Origin: Escherichia coli
Lineage (GTDB): Bacteria > Pseudomonadota > Gammaproteobacteria > Enterobacterales > Enterobacteriaceae
Direction: 5' to 3' (one strand)
Length of the DNA: 64,000 nucleotides
NCBI RefSeq assembly: GCF_041248615.1
Contig: NZ_CP158426.1
Part shown: positions 43,063 to 56,012 of the stretch, piece by piece
Layout: each line of letters opens with the position of its first letter
Position numbering within the stretch: the first letter of the stretch is position 1
Position numbers and translations under genes: made by a program
Notes under the pieces: model-generated
Database searches by the model: none
The model's input: only the letters and a program-made list of their open reading frames with translations
What the model was told of the DNA's origin: nothing

Positions 43063-44151
43063 TGGATTTGCCCCTATATTTCCAGACACCTGTTATCACT
43101 TAACCCATTACTGGCCCGCTGCCGTAGATATTCCCGTGGCGAGCGATAACCCAGTGCACTATGCGGATGCCATTCGTTATAATGCTCGAACGCCTCTGCA
43201 AGGTTCTTTGCTGCCGTTAACCCGTCTGGTTTGGGCATGATACTGATGTAATCACGCTTTATCGTTTTCACGAAGCTCTCTGCTATGCCGTTACTCTCCG
43301 GACTCCGCACCGCCGTGTTCTTCGGTTCAAGTCCCAGCATCCGGGCGAACTGGCGTGTTTCATTAGCCCGGTAGCATGAACCATTATCCGTCAGCCACTC
43401 CACTGGAGATGTCGGAAGCTCGCTGCCGAAGCGGCGTTCCACCGCTCCCAGCATGACGTCCTGTACTGTTTCACTGTCGAAGCCGCCCGTAGTGACCGCC
43501 CAGTGCAGTGCCTCACGGTCACAGCAGTCCAGCGCGAACGTGACCCCCAGTTTTTCTCCGTTATCACAGCGGAACTCGAACCCGTCAGAGCACCATCGTT
43601 GATTGCTTTCTTTCACGGCCACTTTGCCAGTATGTGCCCGTTTCGATGGCGGTACAGCGGTTTTTCGCTCAAGCAACAGCGCATTCTGGCGCATGATCCG
43701 GTAAACACGTTTGGCATTGATAGCAGGCATACCATCAAGTTCGGCCTGTCTGCGAAGCAGCGCCCATACCCGACGATAACCATACGTGGGCAGCTCTCCG
43801 ATAACATGGTGTATACGGAGAAGCACATCCGTATCATCTGAGTGACGGCTGCGGCGACCATCTTTCCAGTCATCGGTTCGTCTGAGAATGACGTGCAACT
43901 GCGCACGCGACACCCGGAGACAACGGCTGACTAAGCTTACTCCCCATCCCCGGGCAACAAGGGAGACCGTCATTCCCGGTTCAAAGCTCTGCTGAACAAT
44001 AGCGATCTTTTCCTGTGTAGTACGCCGTCTGCGTTTCTCCGGCCCTAAGACATCAATCATCTGTTCTCCAATGACTAGTCTAGAAACTAGTATTAAGACT
44101 ATCACTTATTTAAGTGATATTGATTGTCTGGAGATTCAGGGGGCCAGTCTA
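43063..44151 (-). mobile_element. IS2 copy with internal deletion of about 240 bp (1089 bp versus 1331 bp canonical)
   Basis: Both IS2 termini recognised (TGGATTTGCCCCTATATTTCCAGACA at 43063; GGGGGCCAGTCTA ending 44151); the 5 bp flanking the two ends differ (GCCAT versus TATAT), so no target-site duplication. Confidence 0.8.
43074..44105 (-). CDS. IS2 transposase, in-frame InsC-InsD fusion created by the internal deletion
   Basis: N-terminal 37 aa equal InsC ([36 protein letters not shown]); the remainder equals InsD ([21 protein letters not shown]…DNRCLEI). Confidence 0.8.
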
Positions 44152-44485
44152 TATATCAATTAATCATTAGTTTAAAAGCTTGTTCAACTGCATACATCAT
44201 TAGCGTTTAAGCCAGTGAACAGGAAGTTTACTGGCTTAATTACAGTAATATAGTGTATCGCTATGCTCACTGAGTCTTAGATCTCCACCGTCGGTCTAAT
44301 ATTCGCACTCCTGCTAACAACCGGTAATCAAATCGTCCTCCGGTATTGAAAGTTAATACACAAATCAGGATGATGGAGGCTCATACTGGTACAGCGCGAC
44401 CACTTATGCAGGCGTCTCTGTCAGGTTTGTTGCCCGGATCACCCGCATCAGGGACAGGGCTGTTCAGTTATCCGCAGGAGAAAAT

Positions 44486-45496
44486 ATGTCACTCAAGGCT
44501 ATCGCCGCCGAACTCGGGATCTCTGTCACCACAGTCAGCCGGGCGCTTGGCGGATTTTCGGACGTTTCCGCTTCGACCCGTGCACGTGTAGAAGCGGAAG
44601 CTCGGCGTCGTGGTTATCGCCCGAATACCCTGGCAAGACGTCTCAAAACCGGTAAAACCGATGCGGTCGGCCTGGTCTTCCCTGAACATGCTGTACTGTT
44701 CAGCAGTAGTGTGTTTGTGGATATGGTCAGTTGTATCAGCCGGGAACTGGCCCGCCATGATATTGACTTACTGCTGATAGCCGATGATGAACGGGCTGAC
44801 AGCCACAGCTATATGCGTCTGGTCGAAAGCCGCCGGGTTGATGCCCTTATCGTGGCGCACACGATGGATAATGACCCGCGTCTTACACACCTGCAGGAGG
44901 CCGGTATTCCGTTTCTGGCACTCGGTCAGGTGCCGTCCGGTCTTCCCTGTGCCTGGTTTGACTTTGATAACCATGCAGGAACCTGGCAGGCCACACAGCA
45001 CCTGATTGCCCTGGGCCATCAGCGAATTGCCCTGCTGAGTGAGGACAACTCCCGTGCCTATGTCACTGCACGACGTCAGGGATGGCGCGATGCCCTGAGT
45101 GAACATGGTCTGCCTGAGACCTGGCTACGCCGGGTCTCTCCCACCCGACGCTCAGGTTTCCAGGCAGTGACTGAGTTAATGTCACTTCCGCTTCCCCCGA
45201 CGGCCATTATTACCGACAGTGACCTGATCGGTGATGGCGCGGCCATGTCGCTGCAGTTATCCGGTCATCTGTCCGGAGAGGATGCCGTCTCTCTTGTGGT
45301 TTATGATGGTCTGCCGCAGGACAGTATTATTGAACAGGATGTGGCTGCAGTTCTTCAGTCAACACGACATCGCGTCGGTCGTCAGATTGCCGACATGATA
45401 CGCCAGCTGGTCACGAATGTTTCACCTGAAATGCTACAAGTACTCTGGCAGCCGGAATTTCATCCTGGCAAGACAACGCTTGCTCCCTCCGCCTGA
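44486..45496 (+). CDS. rafR: LacI-family repressor of the raffinose operon (RafR-like)
   Basis: 336 aa with N-terminal HTH MSLKAIAAELGISVTTVSRAL; directly upstream of alpha-galactosidase, permease and invertase genes. Confidence 0.75.
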   Translation: MSLKAIAAELGISVTTVSRALGGFSDVSASTRARVEAEARRRGYRPNTLARRLKTGKTDAVGLVFPEHAVLFSSSVFVDMVSCISRELARHDIDLLLIADDERADSHSYMRLVESRRVDALIVAHTMDNDPRLTHLQEAGIPFLALGQVPSGLPCAWFDFDNHAGTWQATQHLIALGHQRIALLSEDNSRAYVTARRQGWRDALSEHGLPETWLRRVSPTRRSGFQAVTELMSLPLPPTAIITDSDLIGDGAAMSLQLSGHLSGEDAVSLVVYDGLPQDSIIEQDVAAVLQSTRHRVGRQIADMIRQLVTNVSPEMLQVLWQPEFHPGKTTLAPSA

Positions 45497-45515
45497 TTTT
45501 TAATCCCGCTCACAA

Positions 45516-45554
45516 ATTCGAATCGTTTCGGTTGCTATCCGAAACGATTCGGAT
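45516..45554. promoter_or_regulatory. near-perfect 16-bp inverted repeat (candidate RafR operator pair) upstream of rafA
   Basis: ATTCGAATCGTTTCGG - 7 bp - CCGAAACGATTCGGAT, located 35-75 bp before the rafA start. Confidence 0.5.
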
Positions 45555-45589
45555 CAACAGTAAGGCATACCCGAAAACGGAGATGTCTT

Positions 45590-47716
45590 ATGGAACCGAT
45601 GTACCGCAGGCTGACCAGTCCCCACTCAGACCTGATTATTAAAACCCACCCGTATGCAGAGATTGTCTGGTGGGGATCCACCCTGAAACACTTTTCACCG
45701 GATGACTGTATCAGCCTGGAAAGGCCGGTTGCGAATGGTCGTCTGGATACCGACACCCCACTGACGCTGATGGCCGAAAACGGCGCGGGACTTTTTGGCT
45801 CGCCGGGGCTGGAGGGACACCGCAACGGGCTGGATGCGTCCCCTGTGTTCCGTACCATCAGCGTGGTACAGGCCGGAGAATCACTCACCCTGACCAGTGA
45901 GGATGCAGTGGCGGGTCTGCGCATGGTCAGTGAACTGGTGCTGACATCGTCCGGTGTGCTGAAGATGCGTCATGCCCTGACGAACCTCCGTGAAGGGGAC
46001 TGGCAGGTGAACCGCTTCGCCATCACGCTCCCTGTGGCTGAAAGGGCAGAGGAAGTCATGGCCTTCCACGGACGCTGGACTCGTGAGTTTCAGCCGCACA
46101 GGGTCCGTCTCACACATGACGGTTTTGTGCTGGAGAACCGCCGGGGCCGCACGTCCCATGAGCATTTTCCGGCACTGATTGCCGGTGCCCCCGGTTTCTC
46201 AGAACAGCAGGGCGAGGTGTGGGCCGTACATCTGGGCTGGAGTGGCAACCATCGCATGAAATGTGAGGTCAAAACTGACGGACGGCGTTACCTCCAGGCG
46301 GAAGCACTGTGGATGCCCGGAGAAAAAGCCCTGAAGAAGGATGAGACCGTGTACACGCCGTGGCTGTACGCCAGCTATTCCCCGGAGGGGCTCAATGGTA
46401 TGAGTCAGCAGTACCACCGTTTTCTGCGCGATGAAATCATCCGTTTTCCTGAGCAGAAACCCCGTCCGGTGCACCTCAATACCTGGGAAGGTATTTATTT
46501 TGACCACGACCCGAACTACATCATGCAGATGGCCGGACGTGCGGCAGCGCTTGGCGTTGAACGTTTCATTATCGACGACGGCTGGTTTAAGGGACGCAAT
46601 GATGACCATGCGGCTCTGGGCGACTGGTATCTGGATGAACAGAAGTATCCGGACGGACTGATGCCGGTGATTAACCATGTGAAATCACTCGGCATGGAGT
46701 TCGGTATCTGGGTGGAACCGGAAATGATTAACCCGGACTCTGACCTCTTTCGCCGCCATCCTGACTGGGTACTGTCAATGCCGGGGTACACACAACCAAC
46801 CGGGAGACATCAGTATGTTCTCAACCTGAACATTCCTGAGGCCTTTGCTTACATTTATGAACGCTGTTTATGGCTGCTGGGCGAACACCCAGTTGACTAT
46901 GTGAAATGGGACATGAACCGCGAGCTGGTCCAGGCCGGGCATGAAGGTCGGGCGGCGGCGGACGCGCAGACCCGTCAGTTTTACCGGCTGCTGGATCTCC
47001 TGCGCGAACGTTTTCCCCGTGTTGAGTTTGAGTCCTGCGCTTCCGGCGGTGGACGTATCGACTTTGAGGTTCTGACCCGCACGCACCGCTTCTGGGCTTC
47101 TGACAACAATGACGCCCTGGAGCGCTGCACCATACAGCGTGGCATGAGTTACTTTTTCCCGCCGGAGGTTATGGGGGCACACATCGGTCATCATCGCTGC
47201 CATGCCACCTTCCGGCAGCACAGCATTGCCTTTCGCGGTCTGACGGCCCTGTTCGGTCATATGGGACTGGAGCTGGATCCGGTAACGGCCGGAGAAGAGG
47301 AATCCGCCGGTTACCGCCGCTATGCCTCGCTCTACAAAGAATGGCGGCAGCTTATCCACACGGGCACCCTATGGCGGGTGGATATGCCGGATGCGGCGAC
47401 ACAGGTGCAGGGGGTGGTCAGCCCGGATCAGTCGCAGGCGCTCTTCCTGGTGAGCCAGCTTGCCATGCCGGATCACACCCTGCCGGGTGCTCTACGTTTT
47501 CCGGGGCTGGCACCACAGGCCCGTTACCGGCTTCGTGTTGTTGACCATCCGGATATTCAGCTGGTCGGTGAAGGCGGGCATACCATGCGCAGGCTGCCCG
47601 GCTGGATGAACCAGACCTCCGACATCAGTGGGGAATGGCTGGCGCAGGCCGGTATTCAGCTTCCCGTACTGGATCCGGAAAGCGCCATGCTGATTGCCCT
47701 TGAACGTTTGGCATAA
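45590..47716 (+). CDS. rafA: alpha-galactosidase (GH36), RafA-like
   Basis: 708 aa; size and context match raffinose-plasmid RafA. Confidence 0.85.
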   Translation: MEPMYRRLTSPHSDLIIKTHPYAEIVWWGSTLKHFSPDDCISLERPVANGRLDTDTPLTLMAENGAGLFGSPGLEGHRNGLDASPVFRTISVVQAGESLTLTSEDAVAGLRMVSELVLTSSGVLKMRHALTNLREGDWQVNRFAITLPVAERAEEVMAFHGRWTREFQPHRVRLTHDGFVLENRRGRTSHEHFPALIAGAPGFSEQQGEVWAVHLGWSGNHRMKCEVKTDGRRYLQAEALWMPGEKALKKDETVYTPWLYASYSPEGLNGMSQQYHRFLRDEIIRFPEQKPRPVHLNTWEGIYFDHDPNYIMQMAGRAAALGVERFIIDDGWFKGRNDDHAALGDWYLDEQKYPDGLMPVINHVKSLGMEFGIWVEPEMINPDSDLFRRHPDWVLSMPGYTQPTGRHQYVLNLNIPEAFAYIYERCLWLLGEHPVDYVKWDMNRELVQAGHEGRAAADAQTRQFYRLLDLLRERFPRVEFESCASGGGRIDFEVLTRTHRFWASDNNDALERCTIQRGMSYFFPPEVMGAHIGHHRCHATFRQHSIAFRGLTALFGHMGLELDPVTAGEEESAGYRRYASLYKEWRQLIHTGTLWRVDMPDAATQVQGVVSPDQSQALFLVSQLAMPDHTLPGALRFPGLAPQARYRLRVVDHPDIQLVGEGGHTMRRLPGWMNQTSDISGEWLAQAGIQLPVLDPESAMLIALERLA

Positions 47717-47770
47717 AAGGACCGGAGCCGGTCACGGCTCCCTGCACTCAGTCCCGTGAGGATAACAATA

Positions 47771-49048
47771 ATGAATACTGTCAGTACTCATAAAAACCCC
47801 GATTTCTGGATATTTGGTCTGTTCTTTTTTCTCTACTTTTTCATCATGGCAACCTGTTTCCCGTTTCTGCCCGTCTGGCTGTCAGACATTGTGGGGCTGA
47901 GTAAAACGGATACCGGGATTGTTTTTTCATGCCTCTCCCTGTTTGCCATCAGCTTCCAGCCGCTGCTGGGGGTCATCTCAGACCGTCTTGGCCTGAAAAA
48001 ACACCTGATGTGGATCATCAGCCTGCTGCTGGTCCTGTTTGCACCGTTCTTTCTGTACGTTTTTGCGCCGCTGCTGCGGTTCAACATCTGGGCCGGAGCA
48101 CTGAGCGGCGGGATTTTTATCGGCTTCGTTTTTTCTGCGGGAGCCGGTGCCATCGAAGCCTATATTGAACGTGTCAGCCGCAGCAGCGGATTTGAATACG
48201 GTAAGGCCCGGATGTTCGGCTGTCTGGGCTGGGCGCTGTGTGCCACCACGGCAGGGCTGCTTTTCAACGTGGATCCGTCCCTGGTATTCTGGATGGGGTC
48301 CGGCTGCGCATTGCTGCTGGTCCTTCTGGTGGCGCTGGCGCGTCCCGGAACCAGTCAGACAGCGATGGTCATGAATGCGCTGGGTGCCAACTCGCCCGTG
48401 ATTTCCGCCGGAATGGTGTTCAGTCTGTTTCGTATGCGTCAGATGTGGATGTTCGTGCTTTACATGATTGGGGTGGCCTGCGTCTATGACGTGTTTGACC
48501 AGCAGTTTGCCACGTTCTTCCGTGCATTTTTTGACACGCCGCAGGCGGGGATCCGGGCATTTGGTTTTGCCACCACGGCTGGCGAGATTTGCAATGCCAT
48601 CATCATGTTCTGCTCCCCCTGGATAATCAACCGCATTGGTGCCAAAAACACACTGCTTGTCGCGGGTCTGATTATGACCATCCGCATCACAGGGTCGGCC
48701 TTTGCCACCACGGCTACTGAAGTGGTGATCCTGAAAATGCTGCATGCCCTTGAAGTCCCATTCCTGCTGGTTGGTGCGTTCAAGTATATCACCGGCGTGT
48801 TTGATACCCGGCTGTCGGCCACCATTTATCTGATTGGCTTTCAGTTCTCCAAACAACTGGCGGCGATATTCCTCTCAACCTTTGCAGGTCACCTGTATGA
48901 CCGCATGGGGTTCCAGAACACCTATCTGGTTCTGGGCGGTATTGTCCTTGCGGTCACCGTGTTATCGGCTTTCACCCTGAGCAGTACCCGTAAAACGGCT
49001 GCCCCGTCAGCAGAAACCGCTACAGCACAGACGGAGGTTCGCTTATGA
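47771..49048 (+). CDS. rafB: raffinose permease (LacY-family oligosaccharide:H+ symporter), RafB-like
   Basis: Start at MNTVSTHKNPDFWIFGLFFFLYFF with GAGGA ribosome-binding site; LacY-like throughout. Confidence 0.85.
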   Translation: MNTVSTHKNPDFWIFGLFFFLYFFIMATCFPFLPVWLSDIVGLSKTDTGIVFSCLSLFAISFQPLLGVISDRLGLKKHLMWIISLLLVLFAPFFLYVFAPLLRFNIWAGALSGGIFIGFVFSAGAGAIEAYIERVSRSSGFEYGKARMFGCLGWALCATTAGLLFNVDPSLVFWMGSGCALLLVLLVALARPGTSQTAMVMNALGANSPVISAGMVFSLFRMRQMWMFVLYMIGVACVYDVFDQQFATFFRAFFDTPQAGIRAFGFATTAGEICNAIIMFCSPWIINRIGAKNTLLVAGLIMTIRITGSAFATTATEVVILKMLHALEVPFLLVGAFKYITGVFDTRLSATIYLIGFQFSKQLAAIFLSTFAGHLYDRMGFQNTYLVLGGIVLAVTVLSAFTLSSTRKTAAPSAETATAQTEVRL

Positions 49049-50475
49049 AACAGCGTCTTGCCTCTGCACAGGTTGCACTTGATACACTCCGCGCCCGTCG
49101 TGGTGATACCTGGTACCCGGTTTTTCATCTGGCTCCACCTGCCGGATGGATGAATGATCCGAACGGGCTTATTTATTTCAGCGGTCGCTATCACGCATTC
49201 TTTCAGCACCATCCGGCAAGTGAACATCAGGGGCCGATGCACTGGGGACATGCCACCAGTCCGGACATGCTGCACTGGCAGCATGAGCCGGTTGCGCTGG
49301 CACCCGGTGATGAATATGACCGGGATGGCTGTTTTTCCGGCAGCGCAGTGGACGACAACGGCGTGCTGTCGCTTATCTACACCGGTCATCTCTGTCTGGA
49401 GGATCGGGGGGATGACAGCATCATCCGCGAAGTCCAGTGTCTGGCAACCAGCCGTGACGGCATTCACTTTGAGAAACAGGGCTGCGTGCTGACGCCACCG
49501 GAAGGCATCATGCATTTCCGTGACCCGAAGGTCTGGCGGGAAGGGGGATACTGGTGGATGGTTATCGGCGCGCGGGATACCTCTGACACCGGTCAGGTGC
49601 TGCTGTATCGCGGCACATCCCTGCGGGACTGGCGCCAGGAACGGGTTCTAGCGCAGTCGGCAGCCGGAGAAAGCTATATGTGGGAATGTCCGGACTTTTT
49701 CCGCTGTGGCGACCATCACTGGCTGATGTTCTCCCCGCAGGGGATGACGCCCGGCGGATACCGGTTCCGCAACCGCTTTCAGAGCGGAGTTTTACCGGGT
49801 CACTGGCAGCCGGGGGCCGCCTTTGCCCTGAGCGGGGCATTTGAAGAACTGGATCACGGTCATGATTTTTATGCCCCGCAGTCCCTGGTCGCGGAGGACG
49901 GACGGCGCATCATCATGGCCTGGATGAATATGTGGGACTCCCCGATGCCTACAAAGCGTGAGGCCTGGGCCGGATGTCTGACCCTGCCGAGGGAACTTTT
50001 TGAACGCCATGGTCGTCTGTGTCAGCGTCCGGTTCGCGAAGCCGAATCCCTTCGCGGGACGTGCCAGCCGTTACACCCTGTAAGGCTCAGTGGCACGCAG
50101 TTGCTGGCTGAGGACGCACAGGCCGTGGAACTGGTGCTGACGTGGCATACCCTCGACAGTCAGGCAGAGCATTACGGCATCCACCTGGGAGACGGGCTCC
50201 GGCTGTATGTGGATAACCAGGCAGGACGGCTGGTGCTTTGGCGTCACTACCCGGATGAGGGGCTGGACGGTTACCGCAGTATCGCGCTGCCTGGCGCAGA
50301 ATATCTGACGCTACGGGTTTTCCTGGACCGTTCATCGGTGGAAGTGTTCGTTAACGATGGCGATGCCACCCTGTCCAGCCGTATTTACCCGCAGCCCGGA
50401 ACCCGCCGGTTGTCGCTATATGCAGCTCACGGCGAGGCTGTGCTGACGGACGGCTCACTGTGGACGCTGGCCTGA
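49045..50475 (+). CDS. rafD: GH32 invertase / sucrose hydrolase, RafD-like
   Basis: 476 aa; GH32 signature WMNDPNG near the N-terminus; start overlaps rafB stop by 4 bp. Confidence 0.85.
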   Translation: MKQRLASAQVALDTLRARRGDTWYPVFHLAPPAGWMNDPNGLIYFSGRYHAFFQHHPASEHQGPMHWGHATSPDMLHWQHEPVALAPGDEYDRDGCFSGSAVDDNGVLSLIYTGHLCLEDRGDDSIIREVQCLATSRDGIHFEKQGCVLTPPEGIMHFRDPKVWREGGYWWMVIGARDTSDTGQVLLYRGTSLRDWRQERVLAQSAAGESYMWECPDFFRCGDHHWLMFSPQGMTPGGYRFRNRFQSGVLPGHWQPGAAFALSGAFEELDHGHDFYAPQSLVAEDGRRIIMAWMNMWDSPMPTKREAWAGCLTLPRELFERHGRLCQRPVREAESLRGTCQPLHPVRLSGTQLLAEDAQAVELVLTWHTLDSQAEHYGIHLGDGLRLYVDNQAGRLVLWRHYPDEGLDGYRSIALPGAEYLTLRVFLDRSSVEVFVNDGDATLSSRIYPQPGTRRLSLYAAHGEAVLTDGSLWTLA

Positions 50476-50538
50476 AATAATTCCACTGCCGTCGGTGACG
50501 GCAGTACTTTCGGTTCACCCGTAATGAAGGAAAGCACA

Positions 50539-51054
50539 ATGGGATTACTGGGCAGGATTAAACAACTGATAAGTGAAAATGAGAAACCGGCGGAAGTCAC
50601 CCGCGTGATGGCACCGCTGTCCGGTGAAATTGTCCCTCTGGACACGGTTCCGGATGCTGTGTTTGCCGGGAAAATAGTGGGGGATGGTATTGCTATCCGT
50701 CCTTCCGGCGGCGATACCTTGATGGCTCCTGTCAGCGGCACTATCGGTAAAATACTGGAGACAAACCACGCGTTTTCCATCCGCACCGACAGTGGCACTG
50801 AACTGTTCGTGCACTTCGGTATTAACACAGTTGACCTCAGGGGAGAGGGTTTCCGGCGTATTGCCCAGGAAGGCCAGCTGATCAGCACCGGTGACCCCGT
50901 CATCGGGTTTGACCTTGCGTTACTTCAGCAGAAAGCACAGTCCACGCTGACACCGGTGATTGTGGCGGACTCTGACCGTGTCCAGGAGATAACCCTGTTC
51001 TCCGGCCCGGTCATCGCCGGAGAAACACCGGTTTTTGATATCAGCAGCCAGTAA
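50539..51054 (+). CDS. PTS EIIA(Glc)-like protein (Crr paralogue)
   Basis: 171 aa from MGLLGRIK (ribosome-binding site AAGGA 7 nt upstream); contains the EIIA-Glc core …KIVGDGIAIRPSG…GKILETNHAFSI…LFVHFGINTVDLRGEGF… including the two active-site His. Confidence 0.75.
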   Translation: MGLLGRIKQLISENEKPAEVTRVMAPLSGEIVPLDTVPDAVFAGKIVGDGIAIRPSGGDTLMAPVSGTIGKILETNHAFSIRTDSGTELFVHFGINTVDLRGEGFRRIAQEGQLISTGDPVIGFDLALLQQKAQSTLTPVIVADSDRVQEITLFSGPVIAGETPVFDISSQ

Positions 51055-51324
51055 GCGCCATGAGTGACAATATCGCCAGCGGGCAGCTGGTATCAGGGAA
51101 AGCCGCACATCTGGCCTGGTGCGGGCTGGTAGCCCTGCATCTGGCCCGCCGGGATGGCCGGATTGCGTCAAAAATCCAGGAAAACCTGTTTCTAAACCGC
51201 TGGCGGAGCACAGCACTGAAACAGCACCGTTTTCCCCGCACATATCAGAGCCCTGCAGAGTGAAAGCGGGGCGAAAGATATCCGCAGCAGGCTGGAGTAT
51301 CTGTGGCAGGCCTGCTCTGGTGAT

Positions 51325-51636
51325 GTGTCGGTACAGACTGACCTGTTCCGCCTGACATTCGCCCTGGAAACCATCAGGGAGCAGGGCTGGTGCTGGCGGA
51401 TACTGAGCGACCGGAAATGGGAGGGGCGTAATGTCGTGGTTCCGAACGGGGATGCCGGCAGCTTTTATCTTTCCCGCTCACGTCTTGAGGCGGCATTTGA
51501 TTATCAGGGGAGGTTGCTGCATCCCCTGACCGGCGATGTGTCTGCCCTCGCTGCCCTGCTCCGGAATGCGGGTTGGTATCCAATTCCAGCCGGAACCACG
51601 GATATGGCGATGTTTGAGCTGTCTGTCATCCGCTGA
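51325..51636 (+). CDS. hypothetical small protein (uncertain; possibly part of a decayed gene)
   Basis: 103-aa ORF with GTG start in a GC-rich stretch where all three plus frames carry 60-100-codon ORFs (51060-51263, 51119-51355, 51325-51636). Confidence 0.25.
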   Translation: MSVQTDLFRLTFALETIREQGWCWRILSDRKWEGRNVVVPNGDAGSFYLSRSRLEAAFDYQGRLLHPLTGDVSALAALLRNAGWYPIPAGTTDMAMFELSVIR

Positions 51637-51665
51637 ATATGACTGATGAAAATCATGGAGTATGA

Positions 51666-52592
51666 ATGAGTACAGTAAAAGTATGGGGTCTCGGTGATGC
51701 CGTGGTGGATTTATTACCGGAGAAGCCGGGCACGCTGTTGCAGTGCCCTGGTGGTGCGCCTGCCAATGTTGCCGTGGGCGTGGCCCGACTGGGGGGCCTG
51801 AGCGGGTTTGTCGGGTGTGTGGGGGATGACCCTTTCGGGCGTTTTATGCGCAAAACCCTGGCTGATGAGGGTGTGGACACGGCGTATATGCATACCGACC
51901 CTCTGTACCGGACTTCCACAGTGGTGGTGTCGCTGGTGCCGGGTGGTGAACGAACCTTCACATTTATGGTGCGCCCTTCGGCAGACCTTTTCCTTACCCC
52001 TGATGATTTACCGCCCTTTCGTGCCGGTGAATGGCTGCATACCTGCTCCAATGCCCTGAGTGCAGAGCCCTGCCGCAGCGCCACGTTTCAGGCCATGGAG
52101 AACATCCGGCAGGCTGGCGGCAGGGTCAGCTTTGACCCCAACATCCGGACTGACCTGTGGCAGAGCACATCGCAACTGCGTGAGTGTCTGCACCGGGCGC
52201 TCATGCTGGCGGATGTGGCAAAGGTATCGGAAGAGGAACTGTTCTTTATCAGCGGTGAACAGGATGTCCGGAAGGGAACCGATGTTCTGGCATCACATTA
52301 TCCCCTGGCACTGCTGCTGGTAACCCAAGGAAAGGATGGCGTGATGGCTCGCTGGCAGGGAAAAAACCTGTACTTCCCGGCAACACCGGTGGTGAGTGTG
52401 GACACGACCGGTGCCGGTGACGCCTTCGTGGCAGGTCTGCTGGCAGCGCTGGCGGCAGAGGGGATGCCCTCCGGTGAGCAGGCACTCGCATCCGTCATCG
52501 AACAGGCCCAGCGCTGTGGTGCGCTTGCCACGACAGCAAAAGGTGCCATGACAGCGTTACCCCGTCGCCAGGATTTACTGAAACACCCCTGA
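51666..52592 (+). CDS. scrK: fructokinase (ribokinase/pfkB family; ScrK/CscK-like)
   Basis: 308 aa; VLGDAVVDLL N-terminus and DTTGAGDAF ATP-binding motif. Confidence 0.85.
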   Translation: MSTVKVWGLGDAVVDLLPEKPGTLLQCPGGAPANVAVGVARLGGLSGFVGCVGDDPFGRFMRKTLADEGVDTAYMHTDPLYRTSTVVVSLVPGGERTFTFMVRPSADLFLTPDDLPPFRAGEWLHTCSNALSAEPCRSATFQAMENIRQAGGRVSFDPNIRTDLWQSTSQLRECLHRALMLADVAKVSEEELFFISGEQDVRKGTDVLASHYPLALLLVTQGKDGVMARWQGKNLYFPATPVVSVDTTGAGDAFVAGLLAALAAEGMPSGEQALASVIEQAQRCGALATTAKGAMTALPRRQDLLKHP

Positions 52593-52640
52593 CCGTTTCC
52601 TGCCCGTAACCGTTGTGCACGTCATTTTTGTTGCGGGTGA

Positions 52641-54188
<1,548 letters not shown>

Positions 54189-54193
54189 ACACT

Positions 54194-54219
54194 AACGCTC
54201 CCGGTGTACCGGGAGCGTT
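54194..54219 (+). terminator. hairpin terminator after the porin gene
   Basis: AACGCTCCCGGT-GTAC-CGGGAGCGTT perfect stem directly after the stop codon. Confidence 0.6.
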
Positions 54220-54424
54220 GCCGGTCATTGTCCCGTAAATGAAAGCGTTGTTCATCAATAGGAATTTAAACCCCAAAAAGATTAAAAAAACACCTGAAAA
54301 AGGGCGCTTTCTCAGCATCGTCACACATGCCATAACTTCGACGTCATCAATTAAATGGACTTCATTGATTGATACCGGGTATCGTGACGGGAGCCTGTTT
54401 AGGATTCTGTGTAAATGCCTTTTC

Positions 54425-55217
54425 TCAGAAGTGACCGTCCAGGCGGTCACCGAACTCGATAATAAAGCGGCTCATTGCCATTCGCCAGTCCTTCAACGGC
54501 ATCGTCCATTTCTGGGACGCAGACTGGATTGCCAGCCACACCACTTTTTTCACCGAGTCGTCTGTCGGGAACACTTTACGCTTTTTGATCGCATGGCGGA
54601 TCACGCTGTTTAGCGACTCGATGGCATTCGTCGTATAGATCACTTTGCGGATGTCCGTTGGATAAGCGAAGAACGTGGCAAGATTCGGCCAGTTAGCCTG
54701 CCAGCTTCGGCTTATCTGAGGATAGCGACTGTCCCAGGCCGCAGCGAACGCTTCCAGTGCCTGCTGACCTGCCTCTTCCGTGGGAGCTTGATAAATCGCT
54801 TTCAGGTCGCGAGTGACGGCCTTGTAGTCCTTCCATGACACGAAGCGCAGGCTGTTGCGCACCATATGCACGATGCATAACTGGATGCGGGCCTTCGGAT
54901 ATACTGTGTTGATGGCATCCGGGAAGCCTTTCAGGCCATCCACACAGGCGATGAGGATATCGTTCAGACCGCGGTTTTTCAGTTCAGTCAGCACATTGAG
55001 CCAGAACTTCGCCCCTTCATTTTCGGCCAGCCACATACCCAGCAGTTCCTTCTGACCTTCGATATTGATGCCCAGTGCCAGGAACACCGATTTGTTGATG
55101 ACGCGACTGTCCTGCCGAACTTTCAGGACGATACAGTCAAGATAAACAATGGGGTAAACAGCATCCAGTGGTCTGTTTTGCCATTCTACAACCTGCTCCA
55201 TCACGGCATCGGTGACC
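54425..55217 (-). pseudogene. IS256-family (mutator-type) transposase, N-terminally truncated by IS3-family insertion
   Basis: Encodes only the C-terminal roughly 260 aa (…VTDAVMEQVVEWQNRPLDAVYPIVYLDCIVLKVRQD…); the frame runs open into the terminal inverted repeat of the neighbouring IS3-family element at 55218. Confidence 0.75.
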
Positions 55218-55271
55218 TGAGCCGCCCCGGGAATCCTGGAGACTAAACTCCCTGAGAAAGAGGTAAACAGA

Positions 55272-55598
55272 ATGACTAAAAATACTCGTTTTTCCCCCGA
55301 AGTCCGTCAGAGGGCGATTCGTATGGTTCTGGAAAGTCAGGGCGAATATGACTCACAGTGGGCGGCAATTTGTTCCATTGCCCCAAAGATTGGCTGTACA
55401 CCGGAGACTCTGCGTGTCTGGGTGCGCCAGCATGAGCGGGATACCGGAGGCGGTGATGGCGGGCTCACCACCGCTGAACGTCAGCGTCTGAAAGAGCTGG
55501 AACGTGAAAATCGTGAACTGCGCCGCAGTAACGATATCCTTCGCCAGGCTTCCGCTTATTTTGCGAAGGTGGAGTTCGACCGCCTCTGGAAAAAGTGA
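55272..55598 (+). CDS. IS3-family transposase OrfA (IS629/IS1203-like)
   Basis: 108 aa, [51 protein letters not shown]; HTH plus leucine zipper. Confidence 0.85.
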
Positions 55599-56012
55599 TG
55601 CCACTGCTGGATAAGCTGCGTAAGCTGTACGGGGTCGGACCGGTATGCAGTGAACTACATATTGCCCCGTCAACGTATTACCACTGTCAGCAACAGCGAC
55701 ATCATCCTGATAAACGCAGTGCCCGTGCGCAGCGCGATGACTGGCTGAAGAAAGAGATACTGCGCGTATACGATGGGAATCATCAGGTATACGGTGTGCG
55801 TAAAGTCTGGCGTCAGTTGTTACGGGAAGGAATCAGGGTAGCCAGATGTACAGTGGCGCGCCTCATGGCGGTTATGGGACTTGCCGGTGTTCTCCGGGGT
55901 AAAAAGGTCCGCACTACCGTCAGCCGGAAAGCCGTTGCCGCAGGCGACCGCGTAAACCGTCAGTTTGTGGCAGAACGTCCTGACCAGTTGTGGGTGGCTG
56001 ATTTTACTTACG
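55595..56012 (+). CDS. IS3-family transposase OrfB, 5' exon (interrupted by group II intron)
   Basis: Frame runs to …[10 protein letters not shown] then meets GTGTG at 56013; the ORF-track continuation [15 protein letters not shown] is intron read-through. Confidence 0.65.

Follow-up and report, generated by a model that had tools for sequence, protein, structure and literature searches.

A split DUF2913 gene in the raffinose locus of Escherichia coli is very probably a single gene inactivated by a frameshift

Genetic Environment of the Stretch Between crr and the Kinase Gene

The window analyzed here, a stretch of 64,000 nucleotides of Escherichia coli contig NZ_CP158426.1, contains a locus for the utilization of raffinose. 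The raffinose locus has been described as rafRABD with a downstream rafY gene (PMC4809568, PMC12987596), and the same order, rafR-rafA-rafB-rafD with the glycoporin gene rafY downstream, is found in the window on the basis of RefSeq annotation, Pfam analysis of an orthologous locus and the published description (PMC4809568). In the RefSeq annotation of an identical E. coli chromosome region, the block comprises genes for a LacI-type repressor, an alpha-galactosidase, an MFS permease, a GH32 hydrolase, crr, two DUF2913 coding sequences, a kinase and a carbohydrate porin, and it is flanked by IS elements. According to the same annotation, a partial IS1414 is situated between rafY and an interrupted IS3-family element. 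The transposase of the latter (approximately 54.4–57.8 kb) is split by a group II intron reverse-transcriptase pseudogene and contains an ALIL frameshifting pseudoknot (RF01497, 111.7 bits) at 55553–55669.

Our analysis focused on positions 51060–51636, which lie between an intact crr paralogue and an intact sugar kinase gene. The open reading frames (ORFs) in and around this stretch are as follows:

50539..51054, plus strand: crr paralogue (EIIA-Glc family, 171 aa), intact; longest ORF from 50524; PF00358, E 1.9e-42
51060..51263, plus strand: 67-codon ORF, frame 0
51119..51355, plus strand: 78-codon ORF, frame 2
51325..51636, plus strand: 103-codon ORF, frame 1, GTG start at 51325
50920..51243, antisense: ORF of 107 aa
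51041..51241, antisense: ORF of 66 aa
51192..51374, antisense: ORF of 60 aa
51374..51583, antisense: ORF of 69 aa
51504..51656, antisense: ORF of 50 aa
51666..52592, plus strand: PfkB-family sugar kinase (ScrK-like; 'aminoimidazole riboside kinase' in PGAP), intact; PF00294, E 2.6e-58

The two Pfam matches bear out the flanking genes named in a first-pass annotation, a crr-like gene upstream and a fructokinase gene downstream. The crr paralogue is about 59%–60% identical to the chromosomal Crr proteins of E. coli and Klebsiella, and in PLSDB high identity to it was found within the raf locus only. When compared with the related raf locus of Citrobacter sp. L55 (Citrobacter-type locus, see below), the gene is intact and constrained (dN/dS 0.11), and the kinase gene shows a dN/dS of 0.27. 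The open-access raf papers examined do not describe a role for the crr paralogue, for instance one in inducer exclusion acting on the permease RafB. Directly past the rafD stop codon and before crr, at 50485–50505, there is a terminator-like hairpin with a stem of 9–10 bp, six G-C pairs and a T-rich tail, which suggests that rafRABD and the genes from crr to rafY may be separate transcription units.

Open Reading Frames and Base Composition

The first-pass annotation had described the stretch as GC-rich, with overlapping ORFs of 67, 78 and 103 codons in all three forward frames and further ORFs antisense. The ORF listing agrees on the three forward ORFs and gives five antisense ORFs of 50–107 aa. 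As to base composition, the description applies to the stretch relative to the whole window (58.8% versus 50.9% GC), but not relative to its own locus, since the raf block (47756–54188) itself has a GC content of 56.9%. The multi-frame pattern alone is likewise unremarkable, because 11.6% of composition-matched random sequences also contained a stop-free run of 67 codons or more in each of the three forward frames and because the neighboring genuine genes hold 1.9–6.5 off-frame or antisense ORFs of 60 aa or more per kb. What distinguishes the stretch is that no single long ORF dominates it, and this is accounted for by homology.

No match to a Pfam or NCBIfam family and no homologues were found for the 78-codon ORF, which spans the lesion described below; the antisense ORFs had neither a Pfam family match nor homologues. 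These ORFs are chance by-products of a GC content of about 59% and not genes. The earlier statement that the stretch does not contain three real genes thus stands, as the 67- and 103-codon ORFs belong together as halves of one gene and the 78-codon ORF belongs to no family. Only the 103-codon ORF had been listed as a feature; it is a real fragment, but so is the 67-codon ORF.

DUF2913 Homology in Two Reading Frames

Taken individually, the two fragments match the DUF2913 family (PF11140) with scores under the Pfam gathering threshold of 23 bits: the 67-aa ORF covers profile positions 9–53 with 21.1 bits and the frame-1 stretch covers positions 66–155 with 12.2 bits. When the two frames are conceptually rejoined, the score rises to 33.4 bits. 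The rejoined protein also matches phrog_15786 (2.6e-45 over positions 13–177) and aligns, over 85%–99% of its own length and at 43%–49% identity, with approximately 100 DUF2913 proteins that are intact and have about 200 aa. The frameshift-tolerant translated search that had been proposed with the first-pass annotation gave strong DUF2913 matches, first in frame 0 and then in frame 1, with combined E values of 1e-43 to 1e-45. In tblastn searches with intact homologues, the N-terminal HSP lies in frame 0 (51060/51099–51239/51260) and the C-terminal HSP in frame 1 (51280–51588/51627), and frameshift-aware dynamic programming placed a single switch from frame 0 to frame 1 at 51240–51261 for nine of the ten homologues tried. 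Judged by this homology, the DNA descends from a member of the DUF2913 family, even though neither of the encoded ORFs reaches the Pfam threshold alone. The parts of the gene are:

51060..51239, plus strand: 5' part of the DUF2913 pseudogene, codons 1–60, frame 0 (MSDNIASGQ...ALKQHRFPR), supported by Pfam, tblastn and frameshift-aware dynamic programming and collinear with the intact orthologue P0120
51240..51263, plus strand: out-of-frame tail of the 67-codon ORF (TYQSPAE, TGA at 51261–51263), from translations and alignment A4
51241..51636, plus strand: 3' part, frame 1, 131 codons and stop, corresponding to intact residues 65–199 minus LTAR, from Pfam and alignment A4

Read in frame 1, the bases 51240..51263 encode the authentic continuation of the protein (HIRALQSE...), and the 103-codon ORF covers the distal part of the frame-1 portion. 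All 15 invariant columns of the family (alignment A3) are kept in the rejoined protein, while the near-invariant residues L44, V57 and D60 (numbering of the intact homologue P0007) are substituted or deleted in the window copy; in the raf lineage, even the intact orthologue has another residue in place of W63. The DUF2913 coding sequence in the window is not one ORF of about 200 codons, as it passes from frame 0 to frame 1 at the junction of positions 51238 and 51239. A single-protein scan of 100,044 species genomes returned no match.

An Intact Orthologue Defines the Lesions

An intact orthologue, P0120 (WP_101701266.1, 199 aa, PF11140), was found in Citrobacter sp. L55 by an exact-sequence cluster look-up, as a member of the 90% cluster of the 67-aa fragment. 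Because the 67-aa fragment represents this 90%-identity cluster, the first protein search had missed P0120; clusters with fragments as representatives can hide the intact versions of split genes. P0120 is encoded on 16 contigs, from one genome and from JGI, ENA and Logan assemblies, and in all six of the contigs listed (L096–L101) its gene sits between crr and the kinase gene of a raf locus in the order rafR-rafA-rafB-rafD-crr-DUF2913-kinase-porin. The locus that carries it is 97.9% identical to that of the window over 10.7 kb, so that the comparison with intact clusters, also suggested at the outset, provides an uninterrupted 199-codon gene at the very same position. Synteny and the start and stop contexts are shared; in both cases the ATG is located 5 nt past the crr stop codon. 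The difference is that P0120 is encoded by one uninterrupted ORF, whereas the window copy lacks 23 nt (600 minus 577) and carries 25 substitutions, 15 of them non-synonymous. Of the two possibilities originally offered for the stretch, a frameshifted decayed gene or non-coding GC-rich DNA, it is the former that is backed by the intact orthologue and by DUF2913 homology across frames 0 and 1, while the latter is not.

When the window was aligned at the DNA level with the copies from Citrobacter sp. L55, from a JGI metagenome and from a Salmonella plasmid (alignment A4), the missing nucleotides resolved into two separate lesions:

Between 51238 and 51239, plus strand: disabling 11-nt deletion, TGAAGTCGCAC missing
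51526..51532, plus strand: 12-nt in-frame deletion, CTGACCGCCCGG missing, with 7-bp direct repeats CTGACCG

At the first site the intact orthologue reads CCCCG-TGAAGTCGCAC-CACATATC; the intact TTT CCC CGT GAA GTC GCA CCA CAT ATC (FPREVAPHI) has become TTT CCC CGC ACA TAT ... TGA in the window. The loss takes out E61-V-A-P64 and moves the reading frame from 0 to 1 after codon 60, and translation from the native ATG therefore ends after 67 codons at the stop codon 51261–51263. The second deletion removes L-T-A-R, its exact position being ambiguous within the CTGACCG repeat; the same loss is seen as a four-residue gap relative to the family in alignment A1. From homologues with 43%–49% identity, a single net loss of 23 nt within 51240–51294, with the frames joined at a T4C4 run, had been deduced. 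This is superseded by the alignment with the intact orthologue; the intact raf-type lineage is itself four residues shorter than the rest of the DUF2913 family in a loop near 51240–51294. A 3' truncation, considered on account of homology to an Escherichia albertii kinase leader that begins at about 51617–51620, inside the end of the pseudogene ORF, was discarded because the intact orthologue has the same C-terminus (...MFELSVFR*). Two further proteins, P0001 and P0038, were rejected as read-through or diverged versions, as the assemblies from which they stem are full of errors, with every gene in fragments.

Distribution of the Broken Copy

Of 5,426 complete E. coli genomes, 245 carry a 901-nt region around the stretch at 99% identity or more (249 records); the region is also found on nine plasmids of E. 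coli and Salmonella (98.7%–100% identity). Both deletions occur in every full-length copy found, that is in 226 E. coli records and the nine plasmids, including the Salmonella plasmid copy, which is 98.7% identical over the 901-nt query and 99.25% identical over the whole 9.4-kb locus. Neither the 5,426 E. coli genomes nor PLSDB contained an intact version. An assembly error is excluded, because the same lesions recur in more than 200 independent complete assemblies. In all copies, RefSeq/PGAP lists two ordinary coding sequences for 'DUF2913 family protein', WP_001313182.1 (67 aa) and WP_001313183.1 (103 aa), with no pseudogene flag; each of the two is found on at least about 1000 contigs.

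Additional deletion variants of the region exist. In P0142 (147 aa), 133 nt have been lost between the CCGCACAT repeats located at 51103 and 51236, and in P0083, found on 32 contigs, a deletion of about 760 nt fuses crr at about codon 57 to the C-terminal frame of the remnant. In E. coli M505 (L095 6001–6191, corresponding to window positions 51060–51250), the locus is cut at 51250 beside an IS3 element and everything past this point is gone, including the kinase gene and rafY.

Constraint and Decay of the Remnant

Relative to the Citrobacter-type locus, the DUF2913 remnant has lost 23 nt through indels, whereas none are found in the other raf genes. Its mismatch is 4.2% (1.4%–3.1% in the other raf genes), its dN of 0.036 is the highest of all (0.003–0.013 in the others), and its dN/dS of 0.48, derived from small counts (25 substitutions), compares with 0.06–0.29 for the others. 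The dN/dS is raised but is not 1; it averages one constrained and one unconstrained branch. Compared with the neighboring raf genes, the remnant thus appears to be under relaxed constraint.

The 15 amino-acid differences between window and Citrobacter were polarized against 63 family members. The changes derived in the window lineage affect conserved columns: L49R, at a position where 61 of the 63 have L, L70Q, in a column with 50 L and 11 I, A129V, where 43 family members have A, and E123K, which the Salmonella plasmid copy does not share with the window copy. By comparison, those derived in the Citrobacter lineage are confined to variable columns. The lost EVAP motif includes a V that is conserved in 57 of the 63 family members. 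In an AlphaFold2 model of P0007 (pLDDT 89.9), an N-terminal five-helix bundle is followed by an alpha/beta domain, and the EVAP deletion and the frameshift map to the start of helix 3 of the bundle. The 67-aa ORF is therefore predicted to encode helices 1–2 only and the 103-aa ORF to lack helices 1–4. Outside the lesions the sequence is well kept, which may reflect either an inactivation that happened recently or some remaining constraint, the small counts favoring neither. With just eight positions at which they differ, the remnants of E. coli and Salmonella offer too few to gauge constraint.

Origin and Fate of the DUF2913 Gene

An intact syntenic orthologue, a disabling lesion and constraint that is relaxed relative to the neighboring genes are in keeping with a unitary pseudogene. 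We consider it very probable that the stretch is a single inactivated DUF2913 gene of the raf locus, situated between the crr paralogue and the sugar kinase gene. The ancestral state is one ORF of 199 codons, as still present in Citrobacter sp. L55 and in several metagenome assemblies. In the lineage leading to the E. coli and Salmonella loci, the 11-nt deletion after codon 60 broke the frame, and a further deletion of 12 nt by slippage between repeats cost four more codons. The gene would then no longer yield a functional product in this lineage and would be drifting. Since every other raf gene is intact and constrained, DUF2913 is probably dispensable for raffinose use in E. coli, and the remnant DNA probably persists only as part of a gene block that is transferred as a whole and from which it has yet to be lost.

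The RefSeq annotation implies a different reading, namely a naturally split gene whose two DUF2913 ORFs are separately translated into functional small proteins. The uniform annotation by PGAP, an arrangement that is stable across more than 200 genomes and the retention of the invariant family residues agree with it, as does the fact that three of the four changes between the C-terminal fragments of E. coli and Salmonella are synonymous (three synonymous, one non-synonymous). However, what splits the gene is the loss of 11 nt, as seen against the intact orthologue in the same locus, and not a conserved architecture, since a single ORF is found in 80 of 80 relatives from species genomes and in the approximately 100 database homologues. 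Conserved helix-3 residues were lost at the split, and each fragment alone stays under the Pfam cut-off. The 103-aa ORF begins with an internal GTG that has no canonical Shine–Dalgarno sequence and would, according to the model, lack most of the N-terminal bundle. Conserved-site substitutions have accumulated and further deletion variants have arisen. It is therefore very unlikely that two functional small proteins are made, because a recent deletion relative to a syntenic intact gene has removed conserved residues and constraint is relaxed.

The 67-aa peptide could still be made and may be translationally coupled to crr. A bolder proposal would be that intact DUF2913 is a functional partner of the EIIA-Glc paralogue of the raf locus, forming a translationally coupled module with it, and that the 67-aa peptide keeps part of this activity and, although truncated, still regulates the uptake of raffinose or sucrose. 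The combination of crr and DUF2913 is found in both window-type and Citrobacter-type loci and is absent from a related cluster of E. albertii. We regard the proposal as a whole as slightly less probable still than the production of two functional small proteins.

An even smaller chance is left for a non-coding GC-rich spacer in which all ORFs are fortuitous and which may have been kept in a regulatory or leader role for the kinase gene and rafY. The frequency with which three-frame openness arises by chance and the local abundance of off-frame ORFs are in line with this idea, and for the 78-codon and antisense ORFs the chance reading holds; furthermore, the GH32 and kinase genes are adjacent in the E. 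albertii cluster, and homology to its kinase leader begins inside the end of the pseudogene ORF, as mentioned above. However, DUF2913 homology that is collinear across two frames at the E values given above, together with the intact orthologue, excludes a purely chance origin, and no sigma-70-like promoter was found in 50300–52800.

Least probable of all, and close to negligible, is a programmed +1 ribosomal frameshift, for example at TTT-CCC-C (51231–51237), that restores a full-length DUF2913 protein: frame 1 is open from 51220, frames 0 and 1 are both open over 51220–51262, this overlap holds the T4C4 run and a P-site tRNA-Phe or tRNA-Pro could re-pair there in the +1 frame, but there is no stalling codon or stop codon beside the run, the shifted product would still be without EVAP and LTAR and would carry the conserved-site substitutions, Rfam searches gave no family in the stretch and, within 44000–56000, only the IS3 ALIL pseudoknot elsewhere, and the intact orthologue, like every other family member, is encoded in one frame, which therefore speaks for a recent lesion and not for a conserved recoding site.

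The stretch is very probably an ordinary, fixed, frameshifted pseudogene of a known, uncharacterized family in a well-known mobile sugar-utilization locus, and what is new is an annotation correction only: WP_001313182.1 and WP_001313183.1 are halves of one gene, very probably a dead one, and should carry a pseudogene flag. The raf-embedded DUF2913 gene has been dispensable for the spread of the locus in E. coli and Salmonella, including chicken-associated lineages (PMC12987596), and the 11-nt deletion is a marker that separates the E. coli/Salmonella raf lineage from the Citrobacter-type lineage.

Comparison With Related Systems

By description, the plasmid-type raf locus (pRSD2; Aslanidis 1989, Ulmke 1997, as summarized in PMC4809568 and PMC12987596) shares with the window a LacI-type repressor, an alpha-galactosidase, a LacY-family permease, a GH32 invertase and a downstream glycoporin, in this order. 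Window-type loci occur on chromosomes as well as on conjugative plasmids. The two open-access papers name rafR, rafA, rafB, rafD and rafY only, whereas the crr paralogue, the DUF2913 remnant and the kinase gene between rafD and rafY are not mentioned there. A literature search for papers combining rafB, rafD and fructokinase gave none.

On the E. albertii plasmid pEA8_2 (NZ_CP117560.1), the invertase gene is also followed by the kinase gene (77% and 72% identity, respectively). Here, however, the two are separated by just 42 nt of unrelated sequence (L013 4959–5000), and a 1.14-kb segment with crr and DUF2913 (window positions 50480–51619) is absent. Because this segment is missing from the pEA8_2 cluster, crr and DUF2913 can be viewed as a separable two-gene module of the raf locus.

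When its two frames are joined, the remnant aligns collinearly with nearly the entire profile of the DUF2913 family (PF11140; phrog_15786). The family is mentioned only in passing in the literature; no relative was found in the PDB by sequence and there was no credible match to defence-system families. It is restricted to Enterobacterales and strongly tied to mobile DNA: members are present on 3,249 of 72,556 plasmids, mostly in Klebsiella, and 2,275 of these plasmids are conjugative. On IncFII-type plasmids (e.g., from Klebsiella grimontii, L014 2263–3421), an intact DUF2913 gene overlaps the 3' end of a gene for a ProQ/FinO-family RNA chaperone by 17 nt just downstream of repA, an arrangement that suggests a co-translated pair. 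Identity between the raf-locus lineage and the other members of the family does not exceed 49%, and the lineage differs from them in its genetic environment. Genes for crr, kinase, GH32 or porin were found within 5 kb of none of 80 DUF2913 loci in species-representative genomes. Elsewhere, members typically reside in the backbone of plasmids, with IncFII repA, traI or umuDC nearby, and often directly follow a ProQ/FinO gene or overlap its end, whereas the window copy follows a crr paralogue in a sugar operon.
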